A DNA stretch of 63,479 nt from a virus (Duplodnaviria > Caudoviricetes). Of this stretch, positions 4,813-49,286 are shown in pieces. Within the stretch, counting starts at the first letter, position 1; each line of letters starts with the position of its first letter. The translations under genes were made by a program, and so were the position numbers. Under the pieces are notes generated by a model, which ran no database searches, was not told where the DNA came from, and worked only from the letters and a program-made list of their open reading frames with translations. Where the stretch lies: positions 1 to 63,479 of IMG/VR virus record IMGVR_UViG_3300025121_000056; one strand, written 5' to 3'.

Positions 4813-4867
4813 CAATTACGAAAGTCTAAGAGACGAATGAAATCAAATTTACATAGGAGAGAAGGCA

Positions 4868-23300: not shown

Positions 23301-26300
23301 ATAGAAAAAAGTAAAGCGGACAAAGATTACTTTATAGAGCCCGATGAATTACAAAAAGGCAGATTCAAAGTAGGGCACAAAGTTAGTGGTGACGCTGAAG
23401 GATTAACTCTCGATCAATATAAAGATAAATACCAGAAAGACTTTGAGACACTTCACAAGAACAATGTTGATTTTGCCGTTTCTGAAGGGAAGAAGGTTTC
23501 CCCAAAGATATTGAAGGATTATCCAGACCTTGCCGAGAAGCCGACTTCACTTATAAGTGAACCAGAGAAAGAAACACCAGTAAATTATGCTGGGATTAAA
23601 AATTTTGAGAAAGAAGCAGTTACTAAACTTCAAGAGAACAGAAAAATACTCGACAAATTATTTGAGGAAAGAGATCAGAGAAGAAACCAAGAACTTTCTC
23701 CCAATGACAAACGAAGTGCTTTAAGGAATATAAATAGCTCTGTTTCTGAATTAAGAGCGAAGGGGATAAATGCAAGATACGAGAATGATAATCTATACAT
23801 TGATGATAAAAAGATTTATCCAATAACCACGAAGAAAGCCGAAAACTTAAACCAAGTTGTAATTGATAACAAAGAAGCAGAAACACCTTTTGAAAAACTA
23901 ACTCCAGAAGAACAAGACCGTCAAACATTTTTATCTGATGTAATTAGTCAAAAGAAATTCTTACCCGAAGAACTCAAGCGAATGTTGCCGGTTGGATTTG
24001 GACAAGAGAAAATTGATAACGCCGTTAAGGACATAAAAGAAGATGGCGGGAAAGAACAAAACCGAGACGCAAAGATTTATAGAGATTTTATAAAATCGGT
24101 AGATGACATTTTCACCAGAGATGGTTATATTACATTCACAGATGGAAGCAAGTTTACAAAAGAACAGTATGATAATGAGTTAGAAGATTATGTTTATCAG
24201 AGAGCAAAACAACAAACAGATTTTGAAGATGACACATTTGATTTTAGTTTACAAGACGCAATTAAGAACGAGGAAATAGATGAAACCACAGCAAGGGAAC
24301 TCTCCCTCGAACAGAATCCGGCAGAACGTGAAGAACTTGTTAAGAGTATTGAGAGCGAAGCGACAAGCGACAACGAAGTTAAACTCAATGAAGCAGTCCG
24401 AAAAGCAGACGAAGTAGTAAAACCGAAAAAACCTTCATTTCTAAAACCACCCAAAGGAAGTAACGCCGTAATAGTAAAGTTTAAGGACGGCAAACAATCC
24501 AAACTACCGATCAACGACTTATCTTTAATAGGAAATGATTACTCGAAAGTTGATAACATTTCTTTTGGTAGTGTAGATTTTAATAAATCCGGTGGATTGA
24601 AATGGGATTCGTTCAAAGAGATTAAGAATGTAAATCCGAACGACCAAATACTCAAACAAGATTTAGATCGCACCGAACTTCAGAGTTTACAAGACAGAAA
24701 GAGACACCTTGAATTAGTCCTTAGTGAAACGAAAGACAATGAAGTCATTAAAAAGGGACAAGTAGAATTAAAAGATATAAACAATAAACTTTCTAAGATT
24801 AGAACAAAAGAAAATCAGTTTGATATGTTTGGTGATAAGCAAGATCAAATGTCATTATTCCAGAAAGAACACACCCGCACCAGAAACGTATTTGAGAAGA
24901 TGAACGATGTTGAACAACAGAAGTTTTTACGCATAGTTGCTAATGGATTTTTAAGTGAGAACCCGGACATTAAGTTTGGCAACGTACCAAAGACTTCCGG
25001 CAGATTAGCTTCAGCAATAGCCAACATTACGCGGCAATCAATTTTATTTGATTCTCGAACTTCCGATATGTTGACTGCGATAGAAGAAATAAATCATATT
25101 GTTTTATCAAATCCCGACATGGTATCAGAGTGGAGAGCAAAAGCAATACTAAGAGAAAACGGATGGGATGGTAGAGGAGATTATAGAGAACCGAACAACA
25201 ACAAAACGCTTGAAGATGCTTATGAGAACTTCGCTGACAAAAATAAAGAATGGTATTCCAAGAACAAAGAAGCGACACCAAAAACACTAACAGAGAAATT
25301 TATTGTTTGGCTAAAGAACCTTTGGGCTAAACTTGCGGGATACTTACACAGCAAAGGATTTTACACACAAGCTGGATTCTTTGAGAACCTTTACACTGGT
25401 AAGCTAAAACAGATGGGGCTAAAGGAACAGACCGAGAGAATAAACGAGATAAGAGTTGAGAATGCACTTGCACAAAAAGTAGAACAAACAAGTTCACCAG
25501 AGTTTAAGGAATTTTTCGGGAAGTCTGAAGTGGTAGATGCAAAGAAAAATCCATTAATAGTTTATCATGGCACAACTGGAGATTTTAATACTTTTGAGAA
25601 AGGTGATGTAGGATTCCATTTTGGATCTTCTGATCAAGCAAATCAAAGAACAATGCCGATAGTTAAGAGTGGTAGAAAACCATTAGTGAGACACGAAGTA
25701 ATGAATGGTGTAAAGACTATTGCTCAAGTTACTTCTGAAGGTGCTAATATTATTGCTGCTTATATTCGTTTAGAAAATCCTTTACGAATAAGAGATAATG
25801 CTTTGACTTCACCGAAGGATTACGCGGGTGCAATTATTGAAGAAGCAAATAGAGGAAATTTTGACAATAAGGTAGCAAATTATATTTATGCTAATGTTGA
25901 GAGGATGCTTGGCTCGAATTATAGTTTGGGTTCTGTAAAGACTAAAGAAGCATTTGATTTTATCAGAGATACTTTGAAAGGAAAAGGCTATGATGGACTT
26001 ATTTACCAAAATGAATATGAGGATAAAGAAGTAAAAAGTGATAGTTATGTAGTGTTTGATGCAAACCAAATAAAGAGTGCAATAGGTAACTCCGGGGAAT
26101 TCAGCAAGAGTGATAATATCTTAAAACAGAAACTTGAAAAGATAAATCCGGAACTCACACAAACACTTATGCAATCTTTACCAGACGAAACAAATCCAAT
26201 GCTTCAGAAAGGATTAGAGATATTCAACTTAGGTAAAACAAAATTCACTGATTGGCAGAAAGCCATGAAAGAAGACTTTGGTAAACAGAACTACCAGAGA

Positions 26301-36770: not shown

Positions 36771-37249
36771 TTATGGATTTTTCAAATACACCCTTAAAGG
36801 GAAAGGATTTATTGAATAAAGACGCTATTAAAGTTGGTGAGAGATTCAAAGTAAATTATTTACTCGATCACATGAGGGAATTGAAGTTGATTGACAGCGG
36901 AAAGAAGCATGAAAAATTTGTTAAGGATATGGACTTGTTGTTAGAGAGAGGATTTGTATTGAAGGAAAGACAAGTAACCTATCTTGATGGATTATTTAAT
37001 AAAATATTTGATGGAGAAGTAAAATGACAAAGCTCGAACTTGCTTTGATTACATCGTTAATAATTTCCATTGTGTTAATATTTGTGCTTTCCTATTTGTT
37101 AAAACAGGCACATAAACTTGCCAATGAATATTATGCCAAGTACCGAACAGAACAAAATAATTGTAGCTTGTTAGAGCAAGAGAAGAAGATTGTACTTGAC
37201 AAAATAAAAAGTGTAAATGCTTTAATAAAATCAGCATAAGGAGAATAAT

Positions 37250-38110
37250 ATGATAAAAATAAAGGCACAATTTACTGGAGTTATTTCTACTGGAGAATAT
37301 GAAAATGAAAGACCTTTTTTTGAAATAGAAGAAGAAGTTGAAAAATCAACCGATGAGGTTTTAGTTCAAAGGCATAATGAACTCTATAAAATGTGTAGAG
37401 ATATGTTTGATATGGTACAAAAACAATCTTATGTCAAACGTATTGCGAAACAAAGAGAAGGAATAAGATTCTATCCGCCAGAGAATTATCCTTCTGTAAC
37501 CTCTATTATTGGTTGGGATGAAGATTTCTTTATGTCGCCAGAAGAATTAGCACAACACGGAGCGAGAGGAACTATCTTACATAAACTTTCAGAGGTGTTT
37601 GATAATACCAAAGAGTGGAAAGATCCAAAAGATTTCCCCGAACTTTACCCTGATCTTGTAATCCTTAAAAAAGGCAGTTTACATCTTCCATTGGACGATC
37701 AAAACTATCCTGGTTTCATAGAAGAATATCCAATTAAATTTTTATCTCACGAAACAATAGTAAAGAATCACGAACATAAATACGCTGGACGACAAGATGC
37801 TGTTGGGATTCCTATTGTAATCGAAGAGAACAAAATTAAAGCGAATAGTTGGGCTAAAATGGGAGTTAAACCAGTCCTTACTTTGTTTGATAAAAAGTTC
37901 GGTGCTATGGACGAACACAAATATATGCAACAACTAACAGCTTATTGGAATTGTCCAGAGAACATTGACGTTAAACAAATCATTCTTATTCACTTGAATA
38001 AAAGAACTGAACAAGGATTTTCAAAACCGAAAGTCTGTACAGAAAAAGACAAATATTTTTCGTTATTCTTGAACAATAGAGAAAATTTCAAAAAACGATT
38101 TCAAATATAA
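37250..38110 (+). CDS. PD-(D/E)XK exonuclease-like recombination protein
   Basis: 'YPSVTSII', 'RGTILH', 'YAGRQD', 'LFDKK', 'QQLTAY'. Confidence 0.75.
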   Translation: MIKIKAQFTGVISTGEYENERPFFEIEEEVEKSTDEVLVQRHNELYKMCRDMFDMVQKQSYVKRIAKQREGIRFYPPENYPSVTSIIGWDEDFFMSPEELAQHGARGTILHKLSEVFDNTKEWKDPKDFPELYPDLVILKKGSLHLPLDDQNYPGFIEEYPIKFLSHETIVKNHEHKYAGRQDAVGIPIVIEENKIKANSWAKMGVKPVLTLFDKKFGAMDEHKYMQQLTAYWNCPENIDVKQIILIHLNKRTEQGFSKPKVCTEKDKYFSLFLNNRENFKKRFQI

Positions 38111-38122
38111 AAGGAGAACATC

Positions 38123-38515
38123 ATGGCTTTTCAAGAAGTAAAAGTAGAAAATGCAATCACACTAACAAAATTCCCGAATCACCCACTTACGGGTTATTAC
38201 TTGGGACACAGAACAATTACCTCAAGTTTCAAAGAACAAATAATCCACGATTTGAAAATTGTAGGTGGCGAAAAAGACGGGAAGAAAGTTTCTATTTATG
38301 GGTTTACAAGTCTTAACAGAAGTCTCGAATCGGTCGAAGCTGGGACACTTGTACGAGTTACTTATTTAGGTAAGTCAACAGAGAAAAATAAATACGGCAA
38401 TACTTCTCATATCTGTAGAGTTGAATTTGATTCTGAAAAAGTTGACGAAACTCTAAAAACACAACAGCACGAAGAAGGCGCGCAAGATGGCACTGACGAT
38501 GATCTTCCCTTCTAA
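38123..38515 (+). CDS. Probable single-stranded DNA-binding protein
   Basis: OB-like 'GTLVRVTYLG' and acidic tail DDDLPF. Confidence 0.7.
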   Translation: MAFQEVKVENAITLTKFPNHPLTGYYLGHRTITSSFKEQIIHDLKIVGGEKDGKKVSIYGFTSLNRSLESVEAGTLVRVTYLGKSTEKNKYGNTSHICRVEFDSEKVDETLKTQQHEEGAQDGTDDDLPF

Positions 38516-38518
38516 ATT

Positions 38519-38938
38519 ATGAAACTTTTTTGCTCAAATACTAAACTCGGATTAATTCCATTATATCCAGACGATCTTGATGAGAAGAAAAAACTCAAGA
38601 TGGGCGAAATCTATTCATGTGAAATTAAATTGGCAAGGAATTATGAGTTTCACAAGAAGTTTTTCGCATTATGTAAAATGGGCTTTGAGAACTCAAAAGA
38701 GAAATTCATTAAAGCTCCGAATCTTGACATATACAGAAAATATGTAATTATCCGTTCTGGATTTGTTGATTTAGTACAAACCCCAAGTGGGATTATTCCT
38801 TTTCCTCAATCTATTTCATTCGAGAATATGGACGAAACAAAATTTCAAGAAGTTTATGGGGGAGCTTTAGATTTTATTATGGAAGATATCGAGGCGAGTA
38901 AAGAAGATATAGAAAACGAGTTGGGAGATTTCTTTTAA
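38519..38938 (+). CDS. DUF1367 / NinB-like protein
   Basis: 'RNYEFHKKFFAL', 'PQSISFENMDETKFQEVY'. Confidence 0.75.
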   Translation: MKLFCSNTKLGLIPLYPDDLDEKKKLKMGEIYSCEIKLARNYEFHKKFFALCKMGFENSKEKFIKAPNLDIYRKYVIIRSGFVDLVQTPSGIIPFPQSISFENMDETKFQEVYGGALDFIMEDIEASKEDIENELGDFF

Positions 38939-38979
38939 TTGACAGTGTAATGGATACAACCTTAGAGAAACTAAGTAAA

Positions 38980-39110
38980 AAATAACATATATGCAACTTA
39001 CCCGATTATGGTAGTTGCTTAGAAACTAAAATTAGAGGATAAATTTTAATGGATGAAAAAATAAAATTGAACGACCAAGATAATAATTCGGGTAGAGTTG
39101 CGAGTTATTA
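38980..39110 (-). repeat. attC-like site (most distal)
   Basis: + strand ATAAC(38982) ATATAT GCAACT TACCCGA ... TCGGGTA [G] AGTTGC GA GTTAT(39104). Confidence 0.8.
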
Positions 39111-39264
39111 TACGAGCCCGCTCGCTCTAAGAAATGAGTACAAAGCCGAAAGTGGATACGATATTCAACACGTTATTGACAACGAAGATGAATCTTGTAT
39201 TGGTGTACTTATTCACTATATCAAAAATCTCGAAGGCAAACTGGTAAGAAAAGCGGGTAAGTAA
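39049..39264 (+). CDS. Cassette ORF, hypothetical; starts inside the attC loop
   Basis: GAGG RBS and ATG lie within 38980-39110. Confidence 0.55.
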   Translation: MDEKIKLNDQDNNSGRVASYYTSPLALRNEYKAESGYDIQHVIDNEDESCIGVLIHYIKNLEGKLVRKAGK

Positions 39265-39313
39265 CTCACAATTCCTTGCCGGAGCCTGTTATTATAGCTC
39301 GCTCCGCTCGCTA

Positions 39314-39442
39314 TAATAACAATTTGGCAGTTGTGCCGCAAAAAACGAGAGAGAAAATTTAGTATGAAGAAAATATTTAATAACATAAAAAACCCAAACT
39401 TCTTAACCGATATTTTTTGTCGGTACGAAGTGCAAGTTATAT
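39314..39442 (-). repeat. attC-like site
   Basis: ATAAC AATTTG GCAGTT GTGCCG CAAAAAA ... TTTTTTG [T] CGGTAC [G] AAGTGC AA GTTAT. Confidence 0.8.
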
Positions 39443-39458
39443 TTTTTTTACGGTAATT

Positions 39459-39938
39459 ATGGGACTATCATCTCATCAAAACACCGTAGGGAAAAACCAA
39501 GAATGGCTAACGCCCAGATATATATTAGAACCGCTTGGAAAGTTTGATTTAGATCCGTGCGCACCAAAACGCAGACCGTGGGGAATAGCTAATAAGCATT
39601 TTACTGTGGATGGATTAGAACGTAAATGGTTTGGAAGGGTTTGGTTAAATCCACCGTTTGATAGATACACAATCGGTTTATGGTTAAAAAAAATGGCTGA
39701 ACATAATAACGGTATTGCATTGATCGCAGCACGAACCGAAACAGAAAACTTTTACAACTATGTGTGGGATGTAGCAACAGGAGTTTTGTTCATTAAGAAC
39801 AGACCCCACTTTTGTTATGTAAATGGGACGATGGCAAAATTTAATTCTGGAGCGCCAATATGCTTAGTAGCTTATGGTGAGATAAACTTAAAGATCTTAA
39901 TTGAAAGTGGCTTAGGAGTGACAGTAAAAAAAATATAA
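39459..39938 (+). CDS. Cassette-borne phage DNA N6-adenine methyltransferase
   Basis: 'EWLTP', 'FDLDPCA', 'VWLNPPF', 'ARTET..F'; stop TAA lies in the next TAAC box. Confidence 0.85.
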   Translation: MGLSSHQNTVGKNQEWLTPRYILEPLGKFDLDPCAPKRRPWGIANKHFTVDGLERKWFGRVWLNPPFDRYTIGLWLKKMAEHNNGIALIAARTETENFYNYVWDVATGVLFIKNRPHFCYVNGTMAKFNSGAPICLVAYGEINLKILIESGLGVTVKKI

Positions 39939-40195
39939 CGTAGTGGCAACTTACACGTTTGCGGCTCAATAAAATAAACTGGAGAATAGACCAATGATAC
40001 AAAAACTATTAGAAGAATTTGCAAAACCATTTTACCGATTGAACATTGGCGGTATAGAAATAATACCCGATTCTAAGAAGGAATTCACTGGAGTAAGCCA
40101 TCGAGAATTATTCAGTTTCATTAATGACCTTTTGAATGTGCGTGCATGTAAAATAAAAAAGAAGCAAGCAAATCGTATACAGTTGCAAGTTATGC
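39933..40195 (-). repeat. attC-like site with long coding loop
   Basis: ATAAC GTAGTG GCAACT TACACG TTTGC ... GCAAA [T] CGTATA [C] AGTTGC AA GTTAT. Confidence 0.75.
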
Positions 40196-40374
40196 AGAAA
40201 ATTGCGGAGTTGATAGAATACCACAAACAAGAAGCATCAGAACCATATTTAACATTAAAGAGCATATCAAAATTAAAGAAGTTTGAGTTAAAGGTATTGA
40301 ATAACTACAAAAGGAAAATGAAGAAGAAACATCAAGACTGGATTAAAATATTAGAGAGCAATTTTACGGCATAA
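39994..40374 (+). CDS. Cassette ORF, hypothetical; about half is encoded within the attC
   Basis: GGAG RBS in the loop; reads through the arm as ANRIQLQV; TAA in TAAC. Confidence 0.6.
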   Translation: MIQKLLEEFAKPFYRLNIGGIEIIPDSKKEFTGVSHRELFSFINDLLNVRACKIKKKQANRIQLQVMQKIAELIEYHKQEASEPYLTLKSISKLKKFELKVLNNYKRKMKKKHQDWIKILESNFTA

Positions 40375-40469
40375 CGCCGAAGCTAAATGGCGCGAGTGAT
40401 AAAATAGAAATAACTAACTAAACCAAAAACTGCCACGTAACGAGCGTCCATTTGAGCGACTTGTTATGT
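40369..40469 (-). repeat. attC site with canonical geometry
   Basis: Minus strand: R'' ACATAAC, spacer AAGTC, L'' GCT[C]AAAT, GG[A]CGC ... GCGCC, L' ATTTAGC, spacer TTCGGC, R' GTTATGC. Confidence 0.9.
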
Positions 40470-40490
40470 GGCAAAACAGAGCGAGGATTT

Positions 40491-40877
40491 ATGAAAACGG
40501 ATTTGAAGGTAAGCGCGGATATAAACGCAGGGATGGATCAACTCGGAAAATTTTTGAACGATTTATCGGTAAAACTTGGAATAGCCGGAAAAGAATTGTT
40601 GCCATACTACGCAAAGAGAGTATTCTTGCGCGGACTACAAAGAATAATTTTCGGGGCATTGGTAATGATATTGCCATATCTATTATTTTTTGTAAATCCA
40701 TTTCCAGAAACGTATAAAGATTATTGGATGTTGGCAAGAATACTGTTTTGCATAACGACAACGTGGAAAGGGCTTGATTGGATTACTGATTGGATTGAAG
40801 AAATTGGCGCACCGGAATCGGTTGCGATACAATGGTTACTGGATGAGTTCAGAAATTTTATTAAAGCGGTAAGATAA
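40491..40877 (+). CDS. Cassette ORF, membrane protein
   Basis: GAGG RBS, two hydrophobic helices. Confidence 0.65.
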   Translation: MKTDLKVSADINAGMDQLGKFLNDLSVKLGIAGKELLPYYAKRVFLRGLQRIIFGALVMILPYLLFFVNPFPETYKDYWMLARILFCITTTWKGLDWITDWIEEIGAPESVAIQWLLDEFRNFIKAVR

Positions 40878-40899
40878 AAAGCGCGGTGGCGTTTTGTCC

Positions 40900-41029
40900 A
40901 CATAACGGAGTTGCAATTGTGCCGATTGCGGACACTGTAAATAAAATTTTATGAACGAAATAACTAACATATTAAACAACAAAAAATGCCGATCAAGAAA
41001 GCAATTCGGACACGAATTGCGAGTTATAT
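40900..41029 (-). repeat. attC-like site
   Basis: ATAAC GGAGTT GCAATT GTG CCG ATTGC ... GCAAT [T] CGG [A] CAC [G] AATTGC GA GTTAT. Confidence 0.8.
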
Positions 41030-41054
41030 TTTTTGGCGGCGGGAGATTGTAAAA

Positions 41055-41273
41055 ATGACAAACAAAGAAATTAAAGAAAACATTTTAGAACAAGCAGAAG
41101 AGCTTGAAAAACTTTTAACCGACAGAATTAGTGAGCTATATAATTTAAGCGGAGCTGCACAAGGACAGTTCTTTCAAGGTGCAAGACACACTTTTTGTTA
41201 TTACAGAGATTATACTTGGAAAATACGGGACTTGGCGAGACAGATTGCAGAAGTAAAGCCAGCCGCCAAATAA
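41055..41273 (+). CDS. Cassette ORF, hypothetical
   Basis: GGGAG RBS before ATG 41055; ends AAK-stop in the cassette end repeat. Confidence 0.6.
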   Translation: MTNKEIKENILEQAEELEKLLTDRISELYNLSGAAQGQFFQGARHTFCYYRDYTWKIRDLARQIAEVKPAAK

Positions 41274-41406
41274 ATATAACGGTTCTTTGCCTAAACCGAT
41301 TGCGGACTTAGAAAAACAATGATAAATAATTTATTAACTAAAAATAGCCGACCAAACTCAAATCAAGAATTGCGAAAGCAATTCGGATTTGAGGCAATAG
41401 TTATAT
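41274..41406 (-). repeat. attC-like site
   Basis: ATAAC GGTTCT TTGCCT AAA CCG ATTGC ... GCAAT [T] CGG [A] TTT [G] AGGCAA TA GTTAT. Confidence 0.8.
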
Positions 41407-41438
41407 TTTTTGGCGGCGGACATTAAAGGAGAAACAGA

Positions 41439-41582
41439 ATGGAAACATTAGCAGTCCTTAACGGAATATTTTTTATAGTAAATATTACAATAAACGCTAT
41501 GCAAGGAAATTGGGCGGCAACAGCAGGATGGTTTTGTGCATTGTGTTGGGTATTTAATTGGTATATAAAAGCCGCCAAATAA
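41439..41582 (+). CDS. Cassette ORF, 47-aa membrane peptide (not in the ORF track)
   Basis: AAGGAG RBS; METLAVLNGIFFIVNITINAMQGNWAATAGWFCALCWVFNWYIKAAK. Confidence 0.65.
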   Translation: METLAVLNGIFFIVNITINAMQGNWAATAGWFCALCWVFNWYIKAAK

Positions 41583-41776
41583 ATATAACGGAGTGGCGGC
41601 TAAACTGCTGCGGAAATAAAAGAAAGGAAATAATAAGATGGACGTTGAGAAAATTAAAAAGTGGATTGCGAACATAGAGCATTTTGAACCCGATTTAAGT
41701 TTAGGGACGTGTAGGACATTAGGTGACATTAAAAAAGAACTTGACAAGAGCAGTCAGTTTGAGCCGCAAGTTAAGG
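41583..41776 (-). repeat. attC-like site with coding loop
   Basis: ATAAC GGAGTG GCGGCT AAACTG CTGC ... GCAG [T] CAGTTT [G] AGCCGC AA GTTAA. Confidence 0.8.
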
Positions 41777-41946
41777 TGCAAATTGCGGAAATTACAGAGG
41801 ATTATATAGAAATTGCTTTTAATAAAATTGTTACAGTAACAGATAGTAAGGATTTTTTTGAAAGAGATGGCTTCGCAGAATGCAACAAAGTTCAATTACA
41901 CGCAATTATTATGCAAATATGGTTACATAGCAATTTGTCAACATAA
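41638..41946 (+). CDS. Cassette ORF, hypothetical; starts inside the attC
   Basis: AAGGA RBS in the loop; reads the arm as SSQFEPQV; TAA in TAAC. Confidence 0.6.
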   Translation: MDVEKIKKWIANIEHFEPDLSLGTCRTLGDIKKELDKSSQFEPQVKVQIAEITEDYIEIAFNKIVTVTDSKDFFERDGFAECNKVQLHAIIMQIWLHSNLST

Positions 41947-42068
41947 CAGATCAGCGATAAGACGCAAAAGAGTAAGAAGGAAAATTTAATTAATGAACAA
42001 ATTTAATAACATAATAACTACAAAAATTGGAACGAATACTTTTGTCGTTCTTGATTGCGTAGTTAGTT
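41941..42068 (-). repeat. attC-like site
   Basis: ATAAC AGATCA GCGAT AAGA CG CAAAAG ... CTTTTG [T] CG [T] TCTT [G] ATTGC GTA GTTAG. Confidence 0.8.
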
Positions 42069-42098
42069 TGCTTTGTGGCGGACACAGGAGATAATAAA

Positions 42099-42497
42099 TT
42101 GGAAGAGAAAATAATATTAAAAGGGATAGTAGCAACGGGTTATATGATGGACAACTTTAGCGGAATAGACTTAATACAAGAGGACGGCTATAAAGTTGAC
42201 TTGATAACCAGATTGAAAGAGTTTGTATATAATTATGGTAAAAAAATAACTGTTAGATATTGGGTTGCAGAGAAAAGAGAAGAAGATGAGAATGTAAAAA
42301 AGAATACGTTAAAGAAAATTATGGGAGTATTAGAGGCGGAATACGAAACAAGTTATTATGAGTATAGCGAATATACAAGTGTAACTGATTACGATACAGT
42401 ATTTAACATTGACAAACACAACCTATATGCGGAATTGATGGGAGTGCAAGGGAAATATTTGATATTAGAAGTGGAGAAAGCCACAAAGTCAAACTAA
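42099..42497 (+). CDS. Cassette ORF, hypothetical phage protein
   Basis: AGGAG RBS before TTG 42099; 'YSEYT...HNLYAEL...GKYLILEV'; TAA in TAAC. Confidence 0.65.
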   Translation: MEEKIILKGIVATGYMMDNFSGIDLIQEDGYKVDLITRLKEFVYNYGKKITVRYWVAEKREEDENVKKNTLKKIMGVLEAEYETSYYEYSEYTSVTDYDTVFNIDKHNLYAELMGVQGKYLILEVEKATKSN

Positions 42498-42617
42498 CGG
42501 CGTGGTTTTTCACTTGCCGCATCGGAAGATAAATGAATGAAAATATTAAACAAAATACTAAACATTAAATTAACAATCGCCTCGCTATTCGCGGTCAAGT
42601 GCAAAAACTTGTTATGC
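42492..42617 (-). repeat. attC-like site (attI-proximal)
   Basis: CTAAC GGCGTG GTTTTT CACTTG CCGC ... GCGG [T] CAAGTG [C] AAAAAC TT GTTAT. Confidence 0.8.
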
Positions 42618-42644
42618 TTTTGCGGGCGGAGAAGGAGAAGATAA

Positions 42645-42866
42645 ATGGAAGTCATAACAGGAAAAATTTATAAGTGTTCTTTTTGTGGACATCGAACCCT
42701 AACAAAAAAAGGTATGGAATTACACGAGGGAACATATTGCAAAAAAAACAAGAATTCAATAGCATTAATGGATATAGAAGATTATGGAGAATCACAAGAA
42801 ATCAGACGTGGTGATTATTCCTCAGACGAACTAGCGAGAAATAATGCTTGGCAAATGGGTATTTAG
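42645..42866 (+). CDS. Cassette ORF, small zinc-finger protein
   Basis: 'YKCSFCG...MELHE..YCKKN'; AAGGAG RBS. Confidence 0.7.
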   Translation: MEVITGKIYKCSFCGHRTLTKKGMELHEGTYCKKNKNSIALMDIEDYGESQEIRRGDYSSDELARNNAWQMGI

Positions 42867-42884
42867 AACGCAAGCCCGCAATAA

Positions 42885-42950
42885 GCATAACTATCTCTTA
42901 TATAGAATTTATTCTTGATAATATTTATGAACAAACATAAACGGGAATTA
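42885..42950 (-). other. attI-like site (crossover G/TT at 42891 on the minus strand)
   Basis: The last TAAC box has no attC hairpin partner and lies 60 bp before the intI-like start. Confidence 0.6.
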
Positions 42951-42951
42951 T

Positions 42952-43098
42952 ATGTTAGAAGATGATTTCAGATCGGTTTGCAGATTAAACCACTTTGCTA
43001 CAAAGACAGAAAATACTTACTGGAGTTTTTGTTTGCAATTTATTCTATTCCATAATAAGAAACATCCGGCGGAACTTGGTAAAAAAATTGGTTATTAA
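42952..43098 (+). pseudogene. intI: Integron integrase N-terminal fragment (48 aa)
   Basis: MLEDDFRSVCRLNHFATKTENTYWSFCLQFILFHNKKHPAELGKKIGY* matches the IntI N-terminal pattern (LDQ.R..IR..HYS.RTE..Y..W...FI.FH..RHP..LG). Confidence 0.85.
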
Positions 43099-43242
43099 TC
43101 ACAATATTCTTATTTTTAGTTAGCTTATGAAACGTATCTTAACAATATTTTTATTATTTGCCCCAAAAGATAAGGAATCTTGCCCTAAAGGTACGATTCA
43201 TAAGCACTTATTTTGCGGGGCATTTTTTATTGGAATGTTATA

Positions 43243-44145
43243 ATGAAAATATGTCGAATTTGTTTAATCGAGAAAAAAGAAGACGAGTTTTATCCGAGGA
43301 TGGGAGTTTGTAAAATTTGCCACAATAAAAGATGCAGAGATTGGGCAATCAAAAATCCCAAAAGAATATTGAGCATTAATCTAAGAGCAAAAAATAAGGC
43401 TAATAAATTACGGTATGATTGGTTATCAAAACATAAACGAAGACATCGGGGTATATACGTAACAAATGGGAAATTCCAAGCAACTTATCAACATAAAAGG
43501 AAACGATATTATTGTGGTCTTTTTGATACTATGGAACAAGCAATAAGGGCATATAGAAAAAAAGAGAAAGAAATTACCGGCAAAAATAGAATTCCTCTAA
43601 AACCAACTTTTAATTACAAAAATAAAACCGTGAAAATTCCGTTGTGCAATTATGGAAGAGCAAATTCTAAACATTATGGTAAATTCACAACGATTATTGA
43701 TTTAGGCGATTATAAAAAAATTAAAGATTATTCTCTATCAATTAATGGTGGTTATGTTGTCTTATCTATAAACGGATCGTTGGTCAGATTGCATAACTTT
43801 TTATTTGATAGCGAAAATACAGATCATAGGAATGGGAATAAACTAGACAACAGAAAATCTAATTTTAGAAAAGCAACTCATACCCAGAACGCAAGAAACA
43901 GTAAAAAACCTGTCCATAATGGACTTTATCATAAGAACACAAGTCCATATAAAGGTGTAACAAAAAGAAACGATTATATGTATAAGTATAGAACAAGAAT
44001 AAGGGTTGATGGAAGATTAATAAGTTTGGGCACTTATGATAACGAAATAGTCGCAGCAAAAATTTACGATGCAGCGGCAAGAAAATATTTCGGTGAATTT
44101 GCTTGTTTGAATTTTCCTCAGAGACAAGAAAGGGGGGCAATTTAA
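43243..44145 (+). CDS. HNH endonuclease with AP2 DNA-binding domain(s)
   Basis: 'DHRNGNKLDNRKSNFRKAT..QN', 'SPYKGV...LGTYDNEIVAAKIYDAAARKYFGEFACLNF'; N-terminal CxxC pairs. Confidence 0.9.
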   Translation: MKICRICLIEKKEDEFYPRMGVCKICHNKRCRDWAIKNPKRILSINLRAKNKANKLRYDWLSKHKRRHRGIYVTNGKFQATYQHKRKRYYCGLFDTMEQAIRAYRKKEKEITGKNRIPLKPTFNYKNKTVKIPLCNYGRANSKHYGKFTTIIDLGDYKKIKDYSLSINGGYVVLSINGSLVRLHNFLFDSENTDHRNGNKLDNRKSNFRKATHTQNARNSKKPVHNGLYHKNTSPYKGVTKRNDYMYKYRTRIRVDGRLISLGTYDNEIVAAKIYDAAARKYFGEFACLNFPQRQERGAI

Positions 44146-44147
44146 TA

Positions 44148-44255
44148 TTGTACACTCACATTTCTCAAAAGCAGATTAAGAATTACAAGAGTCCATTGGA
44201 TTTAATGAATAGTAATAGAAATTCTGAAACACTAAAAATTTATAAAATAGCATGA
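44148..44255 (+). pseudogene. intI: Integrase C-terminal fragment with catalytic Tyr
   Basis: LYTHISQKQIKNYKSPLDLMN... matches the tyrosine-recombinase/IntI tail IYTH(V/I)....SPLD. Confidence 0.8.
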
Positions 44256-44357
44256 CCGAACACGACAAAGTACAAAATGATATTTCCGGTTCATTAAAAT
44301 CCGAACTAAAGGCAGCAGAGTTATTTGGCGAATTCGCTAATCTAAATAATATTATAA

Positions 44358-44873
44358 ATGAATAATGAAGAAACACATATTGCCGTCCAAAACGATATTC
44401 TTTTATCGAGAGAATCGGAGTTGAAAGCCGCCGAGATCTTCACTGCTTCCGGATATTTGGTTTATGTCCAATTTATAAAACCTCAAGCAAAAACATTAGA
44501 AGATATAGAAAGCAATTCGGACTTTGGAGATATTATTATTTTTAAGCCCGGTGGTTCTAATGCAGTTGTGGAAGTAAAAAGATTATCGAGTGCAAACGCC
44601 TTCGCATATTTTTGTGAGGCAAAGGATTTTCGGAACGGGATCATTGTTGATCGGAAACAAACGTATGACAAGAAGTTCATCAAGCCGGTGTTATATCTAA
44701 CATTCAATCATCCTATGAGTTATTTCTTTCTGATAGAGTGTAAGAACAAAGAAGACTGGACCGTAAGAAAAGAGTATTGTGTTACCACAAAGAAAATGGA
44801 AGATTATTATGTGAGCAAAGCTATTGATTGTCAGTTCTATGAGACTGAAGATAAATTAAAAACAAGTCCTTAG
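44358..44873 (+). CDS. PD-(D/E)XK nuclease-like protein
   Basis: 'DFGDIII...VVEVKR'. Confidence 0.55.
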   Translation: MNNEETHIAVQNDILLSRESELKAAEIFTASGYLVYVQFIKPQAKTLEDIESNSDFGDIIIFKPGGSNAVVEVKRLSSANAFAYFCEAKDFRNGIIVDRKQTYDKKFIKPVLYLTFNHPMSYFFLIECKNKEDWTVRKEYCVTTKKMEDYYVSKAIDCQFYETEDKLKTSP

Positions 44874-44937
44874 TTGGACACACTCCAAGCGAGAGATGAG
44901 ATCGCATCAAGTCTCTTGCTCTTATTAAGGGAAGAAT

Positions 44938-46707
44938 ATGAAACTTAATATTTCAAAAGATTTTAGTTTACCGATTGATGCAGTTACACAAACCTTTTCA
45001 ATATTAGCTAAACGAAGGGTGGGGAAAACATATACCGCTTCAGTTATGGCCGAGGAAATGGTAAAAGCGAAACTTCCATTTGTTGTTTTAGATCCTACTG
45101 GTGCATGGTGGGGATTACGTTCCGGTAAAGATGGTCGGTCCGAAGGTGGTTTGCCTGTTTATGTCATTGGTGGCGAACATGGTATTCCTTTGGAACCGAC
45201 TGCCGGGAAAGTAATAGCCGAACAAGTAGCAACTTATCCTTCTTTTTATGTAATAGATATATCTCAATTTGAAAGTAATGCAGCACAAGATAGATTTGCA
45301 ACAGATTTTGCTGAAAGACTTTATCGAATAAAAGAAAAAAATCGTGAAGTAATGCACCTTTTTATTGACGAAGCTGATGCTTTTGCACCACAAAGACCTA
45401 TGCCCGGGCAACAAAGAATGTTGGGTGCGTTTGAAGTGTTGGTAAGAAGGGGTGGAATACGTGGTATCGGTATTACATTAATTACTCAACGTCCAGCAGT
45501 TATAAATAAAAACGTACTTACTCAAACAGAGTGTTTAATCGTTCTACAAACTACTTCTCCGCAAGATCAAGATGCTATTGAAGAATGGGTAAAACGGAAT
45601 GGTAGTGATGAGGAAAGAAAAACTTTAATGTCTTCTCTCGCTTCATTAAAAAGAAGTGAGGCGTGGATTTATTCACCTGCTTGGTTAGAAGTATTCAAAC
45701 GAATCAACATTAGAGAACGTGATACATTTAATTCTTCCGCAACTCCGAAAGCCGGGGAAAAACAAATTAATAATCCGTCCCTTAAACAAGTTGATATAGA
45801 AAAATTAAGTCAGCAGATCAAAGCAACTATTGAGAAAACAAAAGAGAACGATCCAGAGATACTGAAAAGGAAAATCCGGGAACTTGAAAGGAATCAGAGT
45901 ATTAAAAATGTTGTTAGTCCTGATATGCTCTTAGTCAATAATCTGAAGGAAACAATAAAAGGACAGGATAAAGAGATCATCCAATTACGGAAACAGTTGT
46001 TACAAACGAATGAAACTATTAAACTCACATTCCAAAAGACTTTGAAAACAGTAAAATCTTATGTGGATAAAATAGATTTTTCAGAAATAGATATTCCTAT
46101 AATTGTAGTAAACACACAAAATGAATTTTTCAAAATGGCTACAACTCCAAACACTGATAATTCTGTTATAGGGAAGATAATAATTAAGGAAAAATTTAAT
46201 CAATCTCCTTGTAAAACAACAATCCGTGATGGAGAAATAAAACTTAAAGACGGGGCTAAAAGAATGTTGGCTGCTGCTGTAAAGTGGAATCCTCTTGGAA
46301 TAACTGGTTCTCAAATGAAAACACAAGCCGGGATAAAGCACGTTAATACTTTTAGCACTTATAAAACTCAATTAATTAGCGTGGGGTTGTTGTTTCTAAA
46401 TAGTGGTAGCGGTTTATTCTACCCTACTGAAGAAGGGATAAAATATTCTGGCGATACTCCGAGTGCAGAAACAACAGAAGAAGTATTGGCGTTATGGTTG
46501 CCTCACTTCAAAGATGGTGCAAGAAGAATGTTGAGGTTTTTAGTAACTCTAGACGGTAAGGCAATCACACACGAATCTTTGATGCAAGAAGCGCGCATCG
46601 AACATCCGAATACCTATAGTACATATAAGACACAATTAAAGTCTGCTCATCTTGTGGTAGAAAATGACGGTATGATTTCAGCAAATAAGGAAACATTATT
46701 CTTATGA
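44938..46707 (+). CDS. HerA/DUF87-like P-loop ATPase with duplicated C-terminal wHTH-like module
   Basis: Walker A AKRRVGKT, 'VLDPTG', Walker B LFIDEAD, 'ITQRP'; twice 'KDGA.RML...T(F/Y)STYKTQL'. Confidence 0.85.
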   Translation: MKLNISKDFSLPIDAVTQTFSILAKRRVGKTYTASVMAEEMVKAKLPFVVLDPTGAWWGLRSGKDGRSEGGLPVYVIGGEHGIPLEPTAGKVIAEQVATYPSFYVIDISQFESNAAQDRFATDFAERLYRIKEKNREVMHLFIDEADAFAPQRPMPGQQRMLGAFEVLVRRGGIRGIGITLITQRPAVINKNVLTQTECLIVLQTTSPQDQDAIEEWVKRNGSDEERKTLMSSLASLKRSEAWIYSPAWLEVFKRINIRERDTFNSSATPKAGEKQINNPSLKQVDIEKLSQQIKATIEKTKENDPEILKRKIRELERNQSIKNVVSPDMLLVNNLKETIKGQDKEIIQLRKQLLQTNETIKLTFQKTLKTVKSYVDKIDFSEIDIPIIVVNTQNEFFKMATTPNTDNSVIGKIIIKEKFNQSPCKTTIRDGEIKLKDGAKRMLAAAVKWNPLGITGSQMKTQAGIKHVNTFSTYKTQLISVGLLFLNSGSGLFYPTEEGIKYSGDTPSAETTEEVLALWLPHFKDGARRMLRFLVTLDGKAITHESLMQEARIEHPNTYSTYKTQLKSAHLVVENDGMISANKETLFL

Positions 46708-47589: not shown

Positions 47590-48660
47590 ATGATTGATAA
47601 TAAAACATTGCAGGAATATCTGGACAACAAATTAATTACGAAACAAAAACATCCTTCTTTAGACCTATTTATTTACAACTATACACCAGAATGTGTTTTC
47701 TCTAAGAAGTGGGATAAGGTCACAAAAACTTGTAGGGGCTTAATTTTAGATATTAACAATGAAATTGTTGCACGACCATTTGAAAAGTTTTTTAACTATG
47801 GAGAGATTGAAGAATCTTTGCCTAATAGAACGCCTAAGATTTATAAAAAACTTGATGGTAGTTTAATTATTGTAACTTGGTATAATAACGATTTGATTGT
47901 TTCAACAAGAGGAAGTTTTGTTTCGGAACAATCACAAATTGCAAGAAAAATTTTATTAGCAAATTACCCGCTAATAGAAAAAATTAAATCTGATGAAGGA
48001 TTCACTTATTTATTTGAATATACAAGTCCATCCAATAGAATTGTAATTTTATATCCCGAAGAAAGATTAACACTTTTAGCCGTTATTATAAATTGGGATG
48101 GTAGAGAATGTAATCTCGATTATTGGAGATCGTTTGATTTTATCAAAGTAGTTGACGAATATAAAGCGGAATGGAGTGAGGACACAATCCAACAGTTGCT
48201 TGATCTTAACCTGAATAACGAAGAAGGATTTGTTCTGAGATGGGACAATAATTTTAGGGTTAAAGTGAAGTTTGCTGAGTATTTTAGATTGCACAAATTG
48301 ATAACAGGACTTAACGAAAAAACTATTTGGGAATTTCTAAGAGACGGCAAAGATGAAGATGAATTAATAAAACAAGTACCGGAAGAATTTGAAAAATGGG
48401 TTCAGGGAATTGCAGATAATTTATATGGCAATTATAATAAGATTTTTGATGAATGCTTAAATATTCTTAATGAAAATATGTTAAGAGAATTATCACGGAA
48501 AGACGCTGCCATAATAATTATCGAGAAAGCAAAACAATATCAATCTATTTTATTCCCCATGTTAGACGGTAAAGAACGACTTATAACTGAAAATATTTGG
48601 AAACTCATAAAACCAAAATCAAACAAATATTTCAAAGAAATAATCGTAGAGGATATATGA
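47590..48660 (+). CDS. T4 Rnl1-like RNA ligase
   Basis: 'CRGLILD', 'RPFEKFFN', motif I KLDGS, 'TRGSF', 'TYLFE', motif IV EEGFV, motif V RVKVK. Confidence 0.9.
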   Translation: MIDNKTLQEYLDNKLITKQKHPSLDLFIYNYTPECVFSKKWDKVTKTCRGLILDINNEIVARPFEKFFNYGEIEESLPNRTPKIYKKLDGSLIIVTWYNNDLIVSTRGSFVSEQSQIARKILLANYPLIEKIKSDEGFTYLFEYTSPSNRIVILYPEERLTLLAVIINWDGRECNLDYWRSFDFIKVVDEYKAEWSEDTIQQLLDLNLNNEEGFVLRWDNNFRVKVKFAEYFRLHKLITGLNEKTIWEFLRDGKDEDELIKQVPEEFEKWVQGIADNLYGNYNKIFDECLNILNENMLRELSRKDAAIIIIEKAKQYQSILFPMLDGKERLITENIWKLIKPKSNKYFKEIIVEDI

Positions 48661-49286
48661 AAGTTTTATTTCTTAAAGGGTTGCCCGGAAGTGGTAAAAC
48701 AACATGGGCAAGAGAATTCTGCTCACAAAACAAAGATTGGGTTCGTGTGAATAGATTTGATTGTGATTTGGATGAGTGTATCAAAAGAGATTTGAGACGT
48801 TCCAATTCTGTTGGCAAAGATGTTATTCTGAAAATGTATAATGATTATCTAAAACCGAAAGTAGAGCAATATTGTCCTAAACTGGAACTGCAAAATTGTA
48901 TTATCTGTGATCTTGACGGGACGCTTGCCTTGTTCGGGGATAAAAATCCTTATGAAAGAGATTTTGAAAACGATATTCTTAATAAAACGGTCGCTTTGAT
49001 TTTACAGAATTTAACCGACAATCTAATTATTTTATCTGGTCGGTCTGATAAATTCCAAATTGTTACAGAAGAATGGTTGGCGAAAAATGATGTTTTTTAT
49101 AGAAAGTTGTATATGAGAAAAGAAGGTGATGTTAGGAGAGATTGTGTTGTTAAGAAAGAAATGTTTGATTTTTTTATTAAAAATAGATATAGCCCTATCC
49201 TAATTTTAGACGACAGAAATCAAGTTGTGGAACTTTGGCGATCAATGGGATTAACGTGTTTTCAGGTTGCAGATGGGAACTTTTAG
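48657..49286 (+). CDS. pseT: T4 PseT-like polynucleotide kinase/3'-phosphatase with internal deletion in the kinase domain
   Basis: P-loop GLPGSGKTT; 'VRVNR' joins directly to 'FDCDLDECIKRD'; intact HAD motifs DLDGT, SGR, DDRNQVV. Confidence 0.85.
   Translation: MKVLFLKGLPGSGKTTWAREFCSQNKDWVRVNRFDCDLDECIKRDLRRSNSVGKDVILKMYNDYLKPKVEQYCPKLELQNCIICDLDGTLALFGDKNPYERDFENDILNKTVALILQNLTDNLIILSGRSDKFQIVTEEWLAKNDVFYRKLYMRKEGDVRRDCVVKKEMFDFFIKNRYSPILILDDRNQVVELWRSMGLTCFQVADGNF

Follow-up and report, generated by a model that had tools for sequence, protein, structure and literature searches.

The DNA analyzed here most probably carries a phage-borne integron that is real but dead, having lost its integrase: nine single-gene attC-type cassettes, a candidate attI, and the two ends of an integrase gene whose core has given way to an HNH endonuclease gene. 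The window is the whole record IMGVR_UViG_3300025121_000056 (63,479 nt, Caudoviricetes), from an uncultured groundwater phage. Head, tail fiber, terminase, and portal genes are present on the array-bearing contig, which mark it as a real phage; the GC content is 0.354 in the array and 0.351 in the whole genome, and three of the nine cassette proteins match phage families. The region is an integron-type platform inside a real phage genome. The attC array is followed by a candidate attI and then by the intI remnant, and intI and the attC top strand diverge; this is the integron layout that an earlier note on this DNA had recognized.

Geometry of the palindromic sites

Nine imperfect palindromes of the form TAAC...GTTA occupy positions 38980 to 42617, between or overlapping nine short plus-strand ORFs. 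An additional palindrome lies between cassettes.

38980..39110, minus strand: S1, attC-like, box to box 38983-39107; 12/12 core pairs in the rigid scan, extra C and A; GTTA-side arm in ORF 39049-39264
39262..39335, no strand: further palindrome, located between cassettes; a TAAC is followed by a GTTAT...ATAAC inverted repeat of 12 bp (39287-39321), perfect (100% complementary)
39314..39442, minus strand: S2, attC-like, weakest of the nine, box to box 39317-39439; 10/12 core pairs, 2 mismatches, one extra base on the other arm
39933..40195, minus strand: S3, attC-like, ~260 nt, box to box 39936-40195; 11/12 core pairs, extra G and A
40369..40469, minus strand: S4, attC, canonical R''-5-L''...L'-6-R', box to box 40372-40466; 12/12 core pairs, spacers 5 and 6
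40900..41029, minus strand: S5, attC-like, box to box 40903-41026; three extra bases C, T, A; duplex energy -16.5 kcal/mol
41274..41406, minus strand: S6, attC-like, box to box 41277-41403; arm alignment; 21-22-nt flanks common to S5 and S7 (direct repeats)
41583..41776, minus strand: S7, attC-like, 188 nt, box to box 41586-41773; arm alignment; the next gene has its ribosome-binding site and start in the loop
41941..42068, minus strand: S8, attC-like, box to box 41944-42065; 1 mismatch; extra bases C, A, A
42492..42617, minus strand: S9, attC-like, box to box 42495-42614; end-to-end fold; arm alignment

The earlier note described nine palindromes alternating with short ORFs. The count holds, but S1, S3, and S7 depart from plain alternation because their GTTA-side arms overlap the 5' coding part of the following ORF. 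Site lengths range from 95 to ~260 nt, and coding sequence falls inside three sites. The gene after S3 has its first ~66 codons in the loop and GTTA-side arm of that site, and relatives of its protein diverge right after the GTTATG box.

When the arms are aligned against each other and read on the minus strand, all nine sites show AAC, 8 nt, and an extra base (C in seven sites, G in two), followed by ~6 nt and an extra A. On the other arm, a 6-nt spacer precedes GTT in eight of the nine. The claim that the extrahelical bases all lie on one arm is right for eight sites, in which they are confined to the GTTA-adjoining arm, but not for S2, which has one more on the opposite arm. In most sites, 6 bp rather than 3 are paired ahead of the first extra base. 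The bulge-free arm of S1 to S3 is 3 nt longer than in reference sites (3' offset of 9 in the rigid scan versus 5 to 7 in 47 of 48), and the arm alignments suggest a longer bulge-free arm for most of the remaining sites, too. These sites are therefore noncanonical. The attC features, namely, inverse core boxes, stems, and one-arm extrahelical bases, are present in all nine window sites, with exact canonical spacing in S4 only. S1 to S3 and the other long-arm sites are putative integrase substrates. In minimum-energy folds, S4 and S9 alone are closed from end to end.

Support for the sites from scans and a covariance model

A chance origin of the array palindromes is excluded. The rigid-geometry scan gave three hits in the window, all of them in the array and on the minus strand, and none in any of 20 shuffles; a looser duplex scan placed six of its seven window hits within 38983-42614, with 0 to 3 hits in each shuffled window. 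The site grammar is also diagnostic: among 80 viral-contig loci with IntI homologues, the rigid scan gave 55 hits, of which 48 are on the strand opposite intI and upstream of it, and the extra bases are C and A in 30 hits and G and A in 12. The window hits match these reference hits in position, strand, and extra bases.

As a substitute for IntegronFinder's own model, we used an attC covariance model (R1) built from 25 foreign sites picked by a geometry filter. R1 detected S4, whose textbook geometry the earlier note had pointed out, over its full length on the minus strand (44.1 bits, E of 1e-9); S9 was marginal (12.5 bits, E of 0.41), and the other seven of the nine sites were not detected at an E of ≤10.

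We regard it as highly improbable that the palindromes are regulatory hairpins of an early operon (terminators, RNase processing sites, or PeSL-like modules) with a coincidental likeness to attC. The sites do lie in 5' leaders, together with ribosome-binding sites, and some arms form local hairpins that would occur in the mRNA too. Regulatory hairpins leave unexplained, however, why the extra bases stand at a fixed distance from AAC and match those of real attC sites in identity, why an integrase remnant and a conserved candidate attI lie exactly at the array end, and why a foreign attC model finds S4 with such an E value. No T-tract terminators were found on the plus strand, where the array has one terminator-like hit, and promoter-like hits are at chance level (37 found versus 35.4 expected).

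Cassette genes

Each of the nine cassettes holds one gene.

39049..39264, plus strand: cassette gene, 71 aa; no Pfam, PHROG, or PADLOC match
39459..39938, plus strand: orphan Dam-like DNA methyltransferase; phrog_111 5.6e-31, Pfam Dam 5e-7, PADLOC oMTase 8.3e-9; TAA stop in TAAC box
39994..40374, plus strand: cassette gene, 126 aa; subthreshold Pfam Cas_Csy4, 18.3 bits (cutoff 25), PADLOC Cas6f E of ~1e-3; stop in TAAC box
40491..40877, plus strand: cassette gene, 128 aa; no Pfam, PHROG, or PADLOC match
41055..41273, plus strand: cassette gene, 72 aa; second in-frame TAA in TAAC box
41439..41582, plus strand: cassette gene, 47 aa, hydrophobic; from the ORF list
41638..41946, plus strand: cassette gene, 102 aa; from the ORF list; stop in TAAC box
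42099..42497, plus strand: cassette gene, 132-140 aa, phage family without assigned function; phrog_20281 6e-8; stop in TAAC box
42645..42866, plus strand: cassette gene nearest attI, 73 aa, Cys-rich; phrog_18748 4.2e-5

All of these genes are on the plus strand and the attC top strand is the minus strand, so the genes are antisense to their sites. This backward facing of the genes had been overlooked in the earlier note. No cassette gene in the window runs in the sense of the attC top strand for expression from a Pc near attI; because the genes read toward intI, a Pc-type promoter cannot serve them. Of the nine stop codons, four fall exactly within the left box of the site that follows, one more is in an extra TAAC, and another two lie 4 nt before the box.

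Metagenome contigs from two runs contain a compact S7 without 133 nt of the loop, and separate loose contig ends diverge at both S7 boxes. Likewise, for the cassette 7 protein, relatives diverge at both the GTTA and the TAAC box. These variants in assembled contigs, which break at or near both site boxes, are no proof of site-specific recombination: breaks at both boxes are not predicted by one IntI crossover at ATAA/C, and homologous exchange between similar sites would explain them equally well.

Integrase remnant and candidate attI

The array ends as the earlier note described, at an unpaired TAAC (42888-91) 60 bp before an integrase-like ORF that starts at 42952.

42886..42951, no strand: candidate attI; unpaired CATAAC box plus conserved intI leader
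42952..43098, plus strand: integron integrase remnant, N terminus, residues 3-46 (42952-43083); Pfam Phage_int_SAM_4 1.2e-8; TIGR02249 positions 4-43
43213..44145, plus strand: HNH endonuclease gene; phrog_99 2.6e-40; in place of integrase residues 47-292
44145..44255, plus strand: integron integrase remnant, C terminus, residues 293-323 (44145-44249), in another frame, with the catalytic-tyrosine motif YTH

The ORF had been assigned to the opposite strand, which proved wrong. It is a 48-codon stump on the plus strand, like every gene here, and only the attC top strand runs opposite to it; the middle of the integrase has given way to the HNH gene, which is single copy in the window (insert GC content of 0.308). 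The N-terminal remnant is 70% identical to the intact IntI of a locus in another phage contig (L091), and the C-terminal remnant matches the same protein at 15 of 35 residues (tblastn E of 0.001). No complete IntI was found in the window, where TIGR02249 scores only 19 to 24 bits against a cutoff of 265, and neither PF00589 nor another tyrosine recombinase domain was found anywhere in the 63.5-kb record. With its integrase destroyed and no further tyrosine recombinase domain in the record, the array is frozen in this genome unless an enzyme acts in trans.

In a three-way alignment of the window with L091 and another locus, L090, identity is 62 to 71% from AAC to ATG and 29 to 32% to the left of AAC. 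Conservation of the candidate attI thus begins exactly at AAC in three loci with unrelated cassettes.

A separate integrase clade

The relatives of the stump form a separate clade: all 19 rows fall on the same side of a long branch (length of 1.13, support of 100) that sets them apart from 93 other IntI sequences; the intact relatives are 54 to 100% identical to one another, and their integrase is the last gene of the same codirectional operon. Two clade loci were read in context, the contigs of the other 17 clade proteins being outside the comparison. The clade is absent from 50,697 deposited phage records (best match, <38% identity), and a search of one genome per species across 185,579 species, with patterns from one protein only, found no relative above 30% identity.

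The L091 integrase is intact (325 aa) and scores 335.3 bits with TIGR02249 (cutoff of 265); it aligns to VchIntIA (2A3V) over residues 12-310, with the integron-specific segment included. Its contig is that of a phage, with primase, helicase, small and large terminase, and portal genes, and intI sits between the replication and packaging genes. IntI is all that L091 and the window have in common. Four L091 sites obey the site grammar of the window, and R1 detects one of them on the expected strand (24.7 bits, E of 7e-5).

These observations bear on whether the array and stump derive from the chromosomal integron of a host, as a fragment captured through illegitimate recombination or through imprecise excision of a prophage, as published for Vibrio anguillarum phages. 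We consider this unlikely. Such an origin would be in line with the truncated integrase, common in captured fragments, with the fully canonical S4, and with the host derivation of the complete phage integrons published so far (Qi et al. 2023, PMC9892861). It fits poorly with the nine genes, which share the direction of the phage operon and oppose that of the attC top strand, whereas genes follow the top strand in the bacterial-type arrays examined (L106). The array also has the GC content of the phage, with three of nine cassette proteins in phage families; the branch separating the integrase clade from the other IntI sequences is long and fully supported; the one readable intact member lies between the replication and packaging genes of another phage; and the search of one genome per species, with patterns from one protein only, yielded no relative above 30% identity.

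It is also quite improbable that the clade integrase mainly serves lysogeny, integrating the phage into host attC or attI, with the attC-like sites of the phage as by-products or decoys. Nine one-gene sites, stop codons in the boxes, and a candidate attI conserved beside unrelated cassettes fit cassette traffic, not a single attP. A viral record classed as a provirus (that of L095, 96% complete) points both ways: the IntI homologue is the only tyrosine recombinase domain found there, but its gene lies mid-provirus beside the terminase and not at an end. The window is likewise without another integrase, and Qi et al. (PMC9892861) describe a Vibrio prophage with attC sites on its flanks.

The part of the earlier proposal that gives this phage lineage an integron of its own is favored by the separate clade, the intact member in another phage, and the conserved candidate attI beside differing cassettes, but the integrase has been destroyed here. 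Our data suggest that some phages have gene-shuffling integrons of their own. It is possible, and we propose it tentatively, that an uncultured phage lineage owns a dedicated, inherited integron not borrowed from hosts. It would have a deep integrase clade to itself, a 2/6 central spacer in its attC sites, and flipped cassettes, and would be an engine for swapping accessory genes.

Proposed mechanism

We infer the following scheme for where the integrase cuts, which strand is active, how cassettes move, and how their genes are expressed. The integrase would bind the folded plus strand of each site, that is, the bottom strand with extrahelical T and G, and would cut at ATAA/C in the box adjoining the bulge-free arm. 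Circular cassettes would be inserted or excised at attI, directly upstream of the integrase's own gene. Polarity is flipped relative to that of bacterial integrons, such that an attC precedes its gene, supplying its leader and, for three genes, its first codons, and the TAA stop of the cassette gene lies in or just ahead of the inferred crossover box. With this flipped polarity, the cassette genes would have to be expressed by read-through transcription of the phage operon rather than from a Pc promoter.

If the tentative reading of a dedicated phage integron is true, each attC is the 5' leader of its gene, and the recombinogenic strand is the nontemplate strand of a codirectional phage operon. 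Such integrons would be a general engine that swaps small accessory genes, probably antidefense, between phages, and homing endonucleases could kill them, as here. Some "archaeal" or "bacterial" integrons in metagenome bins would then be phage contigs.

Comparison with known systems

Qi, Rajabal, Ghaly, Tetu, and Gillings (2023, Front Microbiol, PMC9892861) found three complete integrons and one In0 in 10,705 genomes; each was in a temperate phage and could be traced to a host or plasmid integron. Their screen also gave 17 arrays that lack an integrase and have two or more sites apiece. The window resembles those phage integrons and CALINs in its attC array of one-gene cassettes, which occur in phages including virulent ones, in its orphan DNA methyltransferase cassette, and in its truncated integrase; it differs in having nine sites, reversed genes, another site geometry, and an integrase clade missing from the 50,697 phage records. 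A CALIN has at least two attC sites and no functional intI nearby, and here nine sites adjoin an intI pseudogene; in practice, the region is a CALIN with a recognizable candidate attI and a delta-intI. Phage integrons and integrase-less arrays were published in 2023; what is new here is the phage-linked integrase clade and the variant site geometry.

In the window, as in the Vibrio cholerae superintegron (VchIntIA, PDB 2A3V), intI and the attC top strand diverge, extrahelical bases occupy the R''/L'' arm, and a conserved platform goes with variable cassettes; the candidate attI of the window has the place of attI at the 5' end of intI, and the integron-specific segment of VchIntIA is present in the clade integrase (L091). 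Unlike in sedentary chromosomal integrons, the genes are antisense to the attC top strand and codirectional with intI, 6 bp instead of 3 precede the first extra base in most sites, the other arm is 3 nt longer, the sites span 95 to ~260 nt and can include start codons, and the replicon is a phage.

Integrase and cassette genes that run in the same direction also characterize inverted-integrase integrons of the Treponema denticola type, of which one locus in our set (L145) is an example. There, however, the attC top strand follows the direction of intI and the array is downstream (four plus-strand sites after intI in L145), whereas here the classical divergence of sites and intI is kept and only the genes are flipped.

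Stem-loops that flank small early genes also recall the PeSL promoter-stem-loop cassettes of T4-type phages, which Arbiol et al. reportedly described in 2010 as flanking small early genes in a hyperplastic region. PeSLs are said to carry early promoters, may mediate modular shuffling, and are not known to have a dedicated recombinase. The hairpins of the window, in contrast, follow attC grammar and end at an integron integrase gene.

The virus record and its array

The 63,479-bp virus record that makes up the window is linear, with a CheckV completeness estimate of 76%, and every long ORF in it lies on the + strand. Among its products are a major head protein, tail fibre, large terminase, and portal, together with an exonuclease, NinB, RNA ligase, polynucleotide kinase, and replication initiator. 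A single 2,970-codon ORF occupies 20340-29252 in the structural region, and at 47590-49286 a T4 Rnl1-like RNA ligase gene is followed by a polynucleotide kinase-phosphatase gene, the classic tRNA-repair pair that counters host anticodon nucleases. The terminase has no relative of >26% identity among 50,697 deposited phage records, NinB found no relatives among viral contigs, and blastn of the array against deposited phages gave no match. DNA of the window is present in 13 listed runs from six studies, all of them groundwater or soil metagenomes.

Between NinB, which ends at 38938, and position 42866 are nine short genes on the + strand; nine imperfect palindromes bounded by TAAC and GTTA lie between these genes or overlap them. 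The main features are as follows.

38980-42617, top strand minus: nine attC-like sites, S1 to S9
39994-40374, plus: cassette 7 gene
40369-40469, top strand minus: site S4
41583-41776, top strand minus: site S7
42886-42951: candidate attI, just before the integrase stump
42952-43098, plus: integron integrase stump
43213-44145: HNH endonuclease gene
44145-44255: C-terminal integrase remnant

The earlier note had described palindromes alternating with ORFs. The numbers agree, but the GTTA-side arms of S1, S3, and S7 lie within the next gene, so that each of these sites holds that gene's ribosome-binding site and its first 20 to 66 codons. Four cassette genes use the TAA of the next site's TAAC box as their stop codon, a fifth stops in an extra TAAC, and two more stop 4 nt short of the box, which itself holds another in-frame TAA.

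The sites follow an attC grammar

When each GTTA-side arm was aligned with the complement of its own TAAC-side arm, the extra bases were confined to the GTTA-side arm in eight of the nine sites; the claim that all extrahelical bases fall on one arm fails only for S2, which has one extra base on the other arm as well. Read on the minus strand, all nine sites share one order: AAC, 8 nt, an extra base (C in seven sites and G in two), about 6 nt, and an extra A. A third extra base is present in S5, S6, and S8, and on the other arm pairing starts after a 6-nt spacer in eight of the nine. Stem sequences vary between sites, each stem pairing with its own partner. Plain minimum-energy folding closed only S4 and S9 end to end, and we therefore relied on the arm alignments; MAFFT produced no structural register for the phage sites.

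The canonical attC geometry, that of the aadA7 site, is present in a real aadA-type site at an IMG/VR locus (L165:8946-9005). We scanned for it with a rigid pattern (AAC-5-3bp-x-6bp-x-3bp ... 12 nt, 3' offset of 5-10 nt, GTT) that required ≥11 of 12 core pairs and boxes complementary at ≥5 of 7 positions. Among 80 IMG/VR loci with IntI homologues, used for validation with intI on the + strand, 48 of 55 matches were upstream of intI on the minus strand. This is the expected place and strand, which indicates that the grammar detects real attC sites and reads their orientation. The extra bases of the 48 were C,A (30 sites), G,A (12), or other (6), and the 3' offset was 5 in 16, 6 in 29, 7 in 2, and 10 in 1.

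In the window, the rigid scan matched S1, S3, and S4 only, all on the minus strand within the array, compared with no matches in each of 20 shuffles. Relaxation to 10 of 12 pairs added S2 and two + strand matches elsewhere (11325 and 29177); the latter are noise, within the range of 0-4 seen in shuffles at that threshold. A looser duplex-energy scan placed six of its seven window matches in 38983-42614, versus 0-3 per shuffled window, and a first arm-alignment scan with heavy gap costs (3 matches versus 0-2 in shuffles) was too strict. The window sites have the same relation to the integrase remnant, and the same extra bases, as the reference sites. Their 3' offset is 9 in S1 to S3 and 6 in S4 alone, and most phage sites have 6 bp, not 3, paired ahead of the first extra base and a bulge-free arm that is 3 nt longer.

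A covariance model (R1; 16 base pairs) was built from foreign attC sites: 45 of the 48 reference sites were aligned after three near-duplicates were dropped, and the 25 whose arms MAFFT brought into register were used. R1 owes nothing to the phage sequences, but it does depend on the geometry filter that picked its sites. Searched against the whole window with filters off, it found S4 at full length on the minus strand (44.1 bits, E 1e-9). Together with the rigid-scan match and the 3' offset of 6, this confirms S4 as the canonical site that it had been taken for. Model support is uneven across the array: S9 scored 12.5 bits (E 0.41), the other seven sites were undetected at E ≤ 10, and nothing besides the sites fell below E 3 in the 63 kb.

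The array has one terminator-like match on the + strand, and we rejected the sites as intrinsic terminators; promoter-like matches were at chance level (37 found, 35.4 expected). A left half-site motif occurred in 86 stretches of viral contigs, with a single match in each of the 80 listed; by a rough estimate for a 16-base pattern with a variable gap, we judged these to be chance.

The integrase has been destroyed

The IntI-like ORF had been assigned to the strand opposite the array genes; it is on the + strand, as they all are. This stump matches Phage_int_SAM_4 (E 1.2e-8) and positions 4-43 of TIGR02249, the integron-integrase model. Its nearest relative, P0001, is 74% identical, is cut by a contig end, and scores 188.8 bits with TIGR02249 versus 80.8 with XerA. 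A metagenome scan recovered two contigs: L090, of 1.5 kb, from which P0001 itself comes, and L091, of 44 kb, whose 325-aa integrase gene is intact (TIGR02249, 335.3 bits; cut-off, 265). The product of that gene aligns to VchIntIA (2A3V), residues 12-310, integron-specific segment included. P0001 found no relatives among viral contigs and, among genome contigs, only Flavobacteriaceae recombinases of 29-30% identity.

With the L091 protein as the tblastn query, residues 3-46 matched 42952-43083 (31/44 identical), and residues 293-323, which include the YTH tyrosine motif, matched 44145-44249 in another frame (15/35 identical, E 0.001); there was no match between 43083 and 44145. The gap holds the single-copy HNH gene (phrog_99, 2.6e-40). 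Simple interruption of the integrase by this gene is ruled out by the absence of the integrase core, and a recognizable intron was rejected as well, as the region has no Rfam match to an intron or any other RNA family. No other tyrosine-recombinase domain was found in the whole record. The integron in the window is dead.

A phage-linked clade of integron integrases

The L091 protein, used as a query, retrieved 19 full-length or near-full-length proteins that were 54-100% identical to it; the proteins listed next were ≤49% identical, and those with source names were annotated as integron integrases. In a quick maximum-likelihood tree of the 112 of 119 sequences that were 280-360 aa long, a branch of length 1.13 (support, 100) separates the 19 from the rest. 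The longest contigs carrying them are 10-64 kb. Genomic context was read for 2 of the 19. L091 has genes for primase, helicase, small and large terminases, and portal, all on the + strand, and is thus a phage; its intI is between small genes and the packaging genes. Clade member P0014, from a 43-kb contig, has the deposited title "MAG: integron integrase [Thermoplasmata archaeon]"; the contig may be of phage origin and have been binned with an archaeon. The window was the only source of a clade member in IMG/VR, and deposited phage genomes had none (nine records matched, all at <38% identity).

By blastp, IntI is the sole protein that L091 shares with the window, and four sites upstream of the L091 intI obey the window-site grammar; R1 detected one site in L091 (24.7 bits, E 7e-5). 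Aligning the stretch ahead of the start codon from the window, L090, and L091 gave 29-32% identity to the left of the AAC of the box and 62-71% from AAC to ATG. At the sequence level, this is the pattern of a conserved candidate attI joined to unrelated first cassettes. Perfect, bulge-free GTT...AAC palindromes occur between two cassettes in the window (39262-39335, 12-bp arms) and abutting the attI box in L090 (878-910) and L091 (9910-9939); they may be empty cassettes or recombination scars. The proposal that this phage lineage had its own integron is favored by a distinct IntI clade with an intact member in a phage, but the window's own integrase is destroyed.

IMG/VR also has at least 545 stretches with IntI homologues, 36-43% identical among the 80 kept. 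Two of these, L124 and L095, come from records of 43 and 40 kb that are 96% complete; both are true phages, in which primase is followed by methyltransferases or HNH, then intI, large terminase, and portal, and IntI is the only tyrosine recombinase found in the L095 record. Integron integrases look far commoner in uncultured phages than the 2023 isolate screen (Qi et al. 2023, PMC9892861) suggests. In GenBank, the 41-kb metagenome-derived record KX853513.1 (Virus Rctr41k) has an IntI homologue at 4689-5639, annotated "xerD integrase-like" and 37.9% identical to the L091 protein over 96% of its length; Qi et al. 2023 do not name this record in the text or main tables consulted. Another locus, L145:9962-12824, has an inverted-integrase layout with four + strand attC matches downstream of intI; the partition, FtsK-like, topoisomerase, and primase genes beside it suggest a plasmid or integrative element rather than a phage.

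Strain variation at site boundaries

Contigs of four runs from three studies were mapped to 37000-46000, a comparison in which assembled contigs cannot reveal rare circles or excision. Among 22 listed loose ends, 16 fall in the array; 13 more are outside this list. Loose ends mark the two boxes of S7, at 41581 in three runs and 41774 in two, and two runs have a compact S7 that lacks 133 nt of loop. The three relatives found for the cassette 7 protein match it over the first ∼66 residues; divergence starts immediately past the codons of the GTTATG box, and in one of the three the last five residues are again in common. Breakpoints at both boxes show that the sites are module boundaries. They are not what a single integrase crossover at the TAAC box predicts; exchange between sites that look alike, or families of sites that are shared, would account for them equally well.

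One joint, from 41280 to 41596, was rejected as a cassette loss: one of its sides is only 20 letters long, and it leaves out 315 nt, whereas exact loss of a cassette would leave out 309. The cassette 7 protein has a weak, subthreshold likeness to Cas6f/Csy4 (Pfam, 18.3 bits; PADLOC, E about 1e-3), which spans the divergence point of its relatives and is probably spurious. One run has a 66-nt in-frame deletion inside the integrase stump (42972-43039), and at 43148 and 44361, which border the HNH/integrase-remnant region, divergence is seen in the contigs of several runs; this region is therefore also strain variable.

Polarity, significance, and comparison with known integrons

In the bacterial-type array L106, genes and attC top strands are on one strand. 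In the window they are on opposite strands, with every attC top strand minus and every gene plus. Sites and intI/attI are divergent, as in classical integrons and unlike in the inverted-integrase type of L145; only the genes are flipped relative to the classical layout, and each cassette reads attC, gene, TAA|C in + coordinates. The strand with extrahelical T and G, the expected active strand, would then be the coding, nontemplate strand, an assignment based on the published integron mechanism. The attC array, candidate attI, and destroyed integrase are real features of a phage sequence; the mechanism is one that we infer from them, and recombination is putative.

Integrons are seen as bacterial devices, acquired by phages on occasion. 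Most anti-defense genes belong to the class of small early phage genes, whose turnover is, to our knowledge, poorly understood. If phage-linked integrases with a site geometry of their own and backward-facing cassettes are borne out, phages would shuffle such genes of theirs by the single-strand recombination chemistry of integrons. The intact L091 integrase, the candidate attI, and nine sites, one canonical and eight variant, are material on offer: the integrase and sites could show how far IntI tolerates altered attC geometry and whether nontemplate-strand transcription drives site folding. Cassette boundaries also offer a handle for mining phage accessory genes, and integron integrases in metagenome bins may be on phage contigs.

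Full-text searches on phage or viral integrons, in a coverage that excludes most subscription journals, turned up no description of a phage integrase clade or of reversed cassettes, and the phage-term passages of Ghaly et al. 2022 and the IntegronFinder 2 paper hold nothing relevant. In Qi et al. (PMC9892861), a screen of 10,705 phage genomes yielded three complete integrons and one In0, every one of them in a temperate phage and linked to an integron of a host or plasmid, along with 17 integrase-less arrays; IntI1 recombined five of the six phage sites assayed. Methyltransferase cassettes occur both in that phage set (PMC9892861) and in the window.
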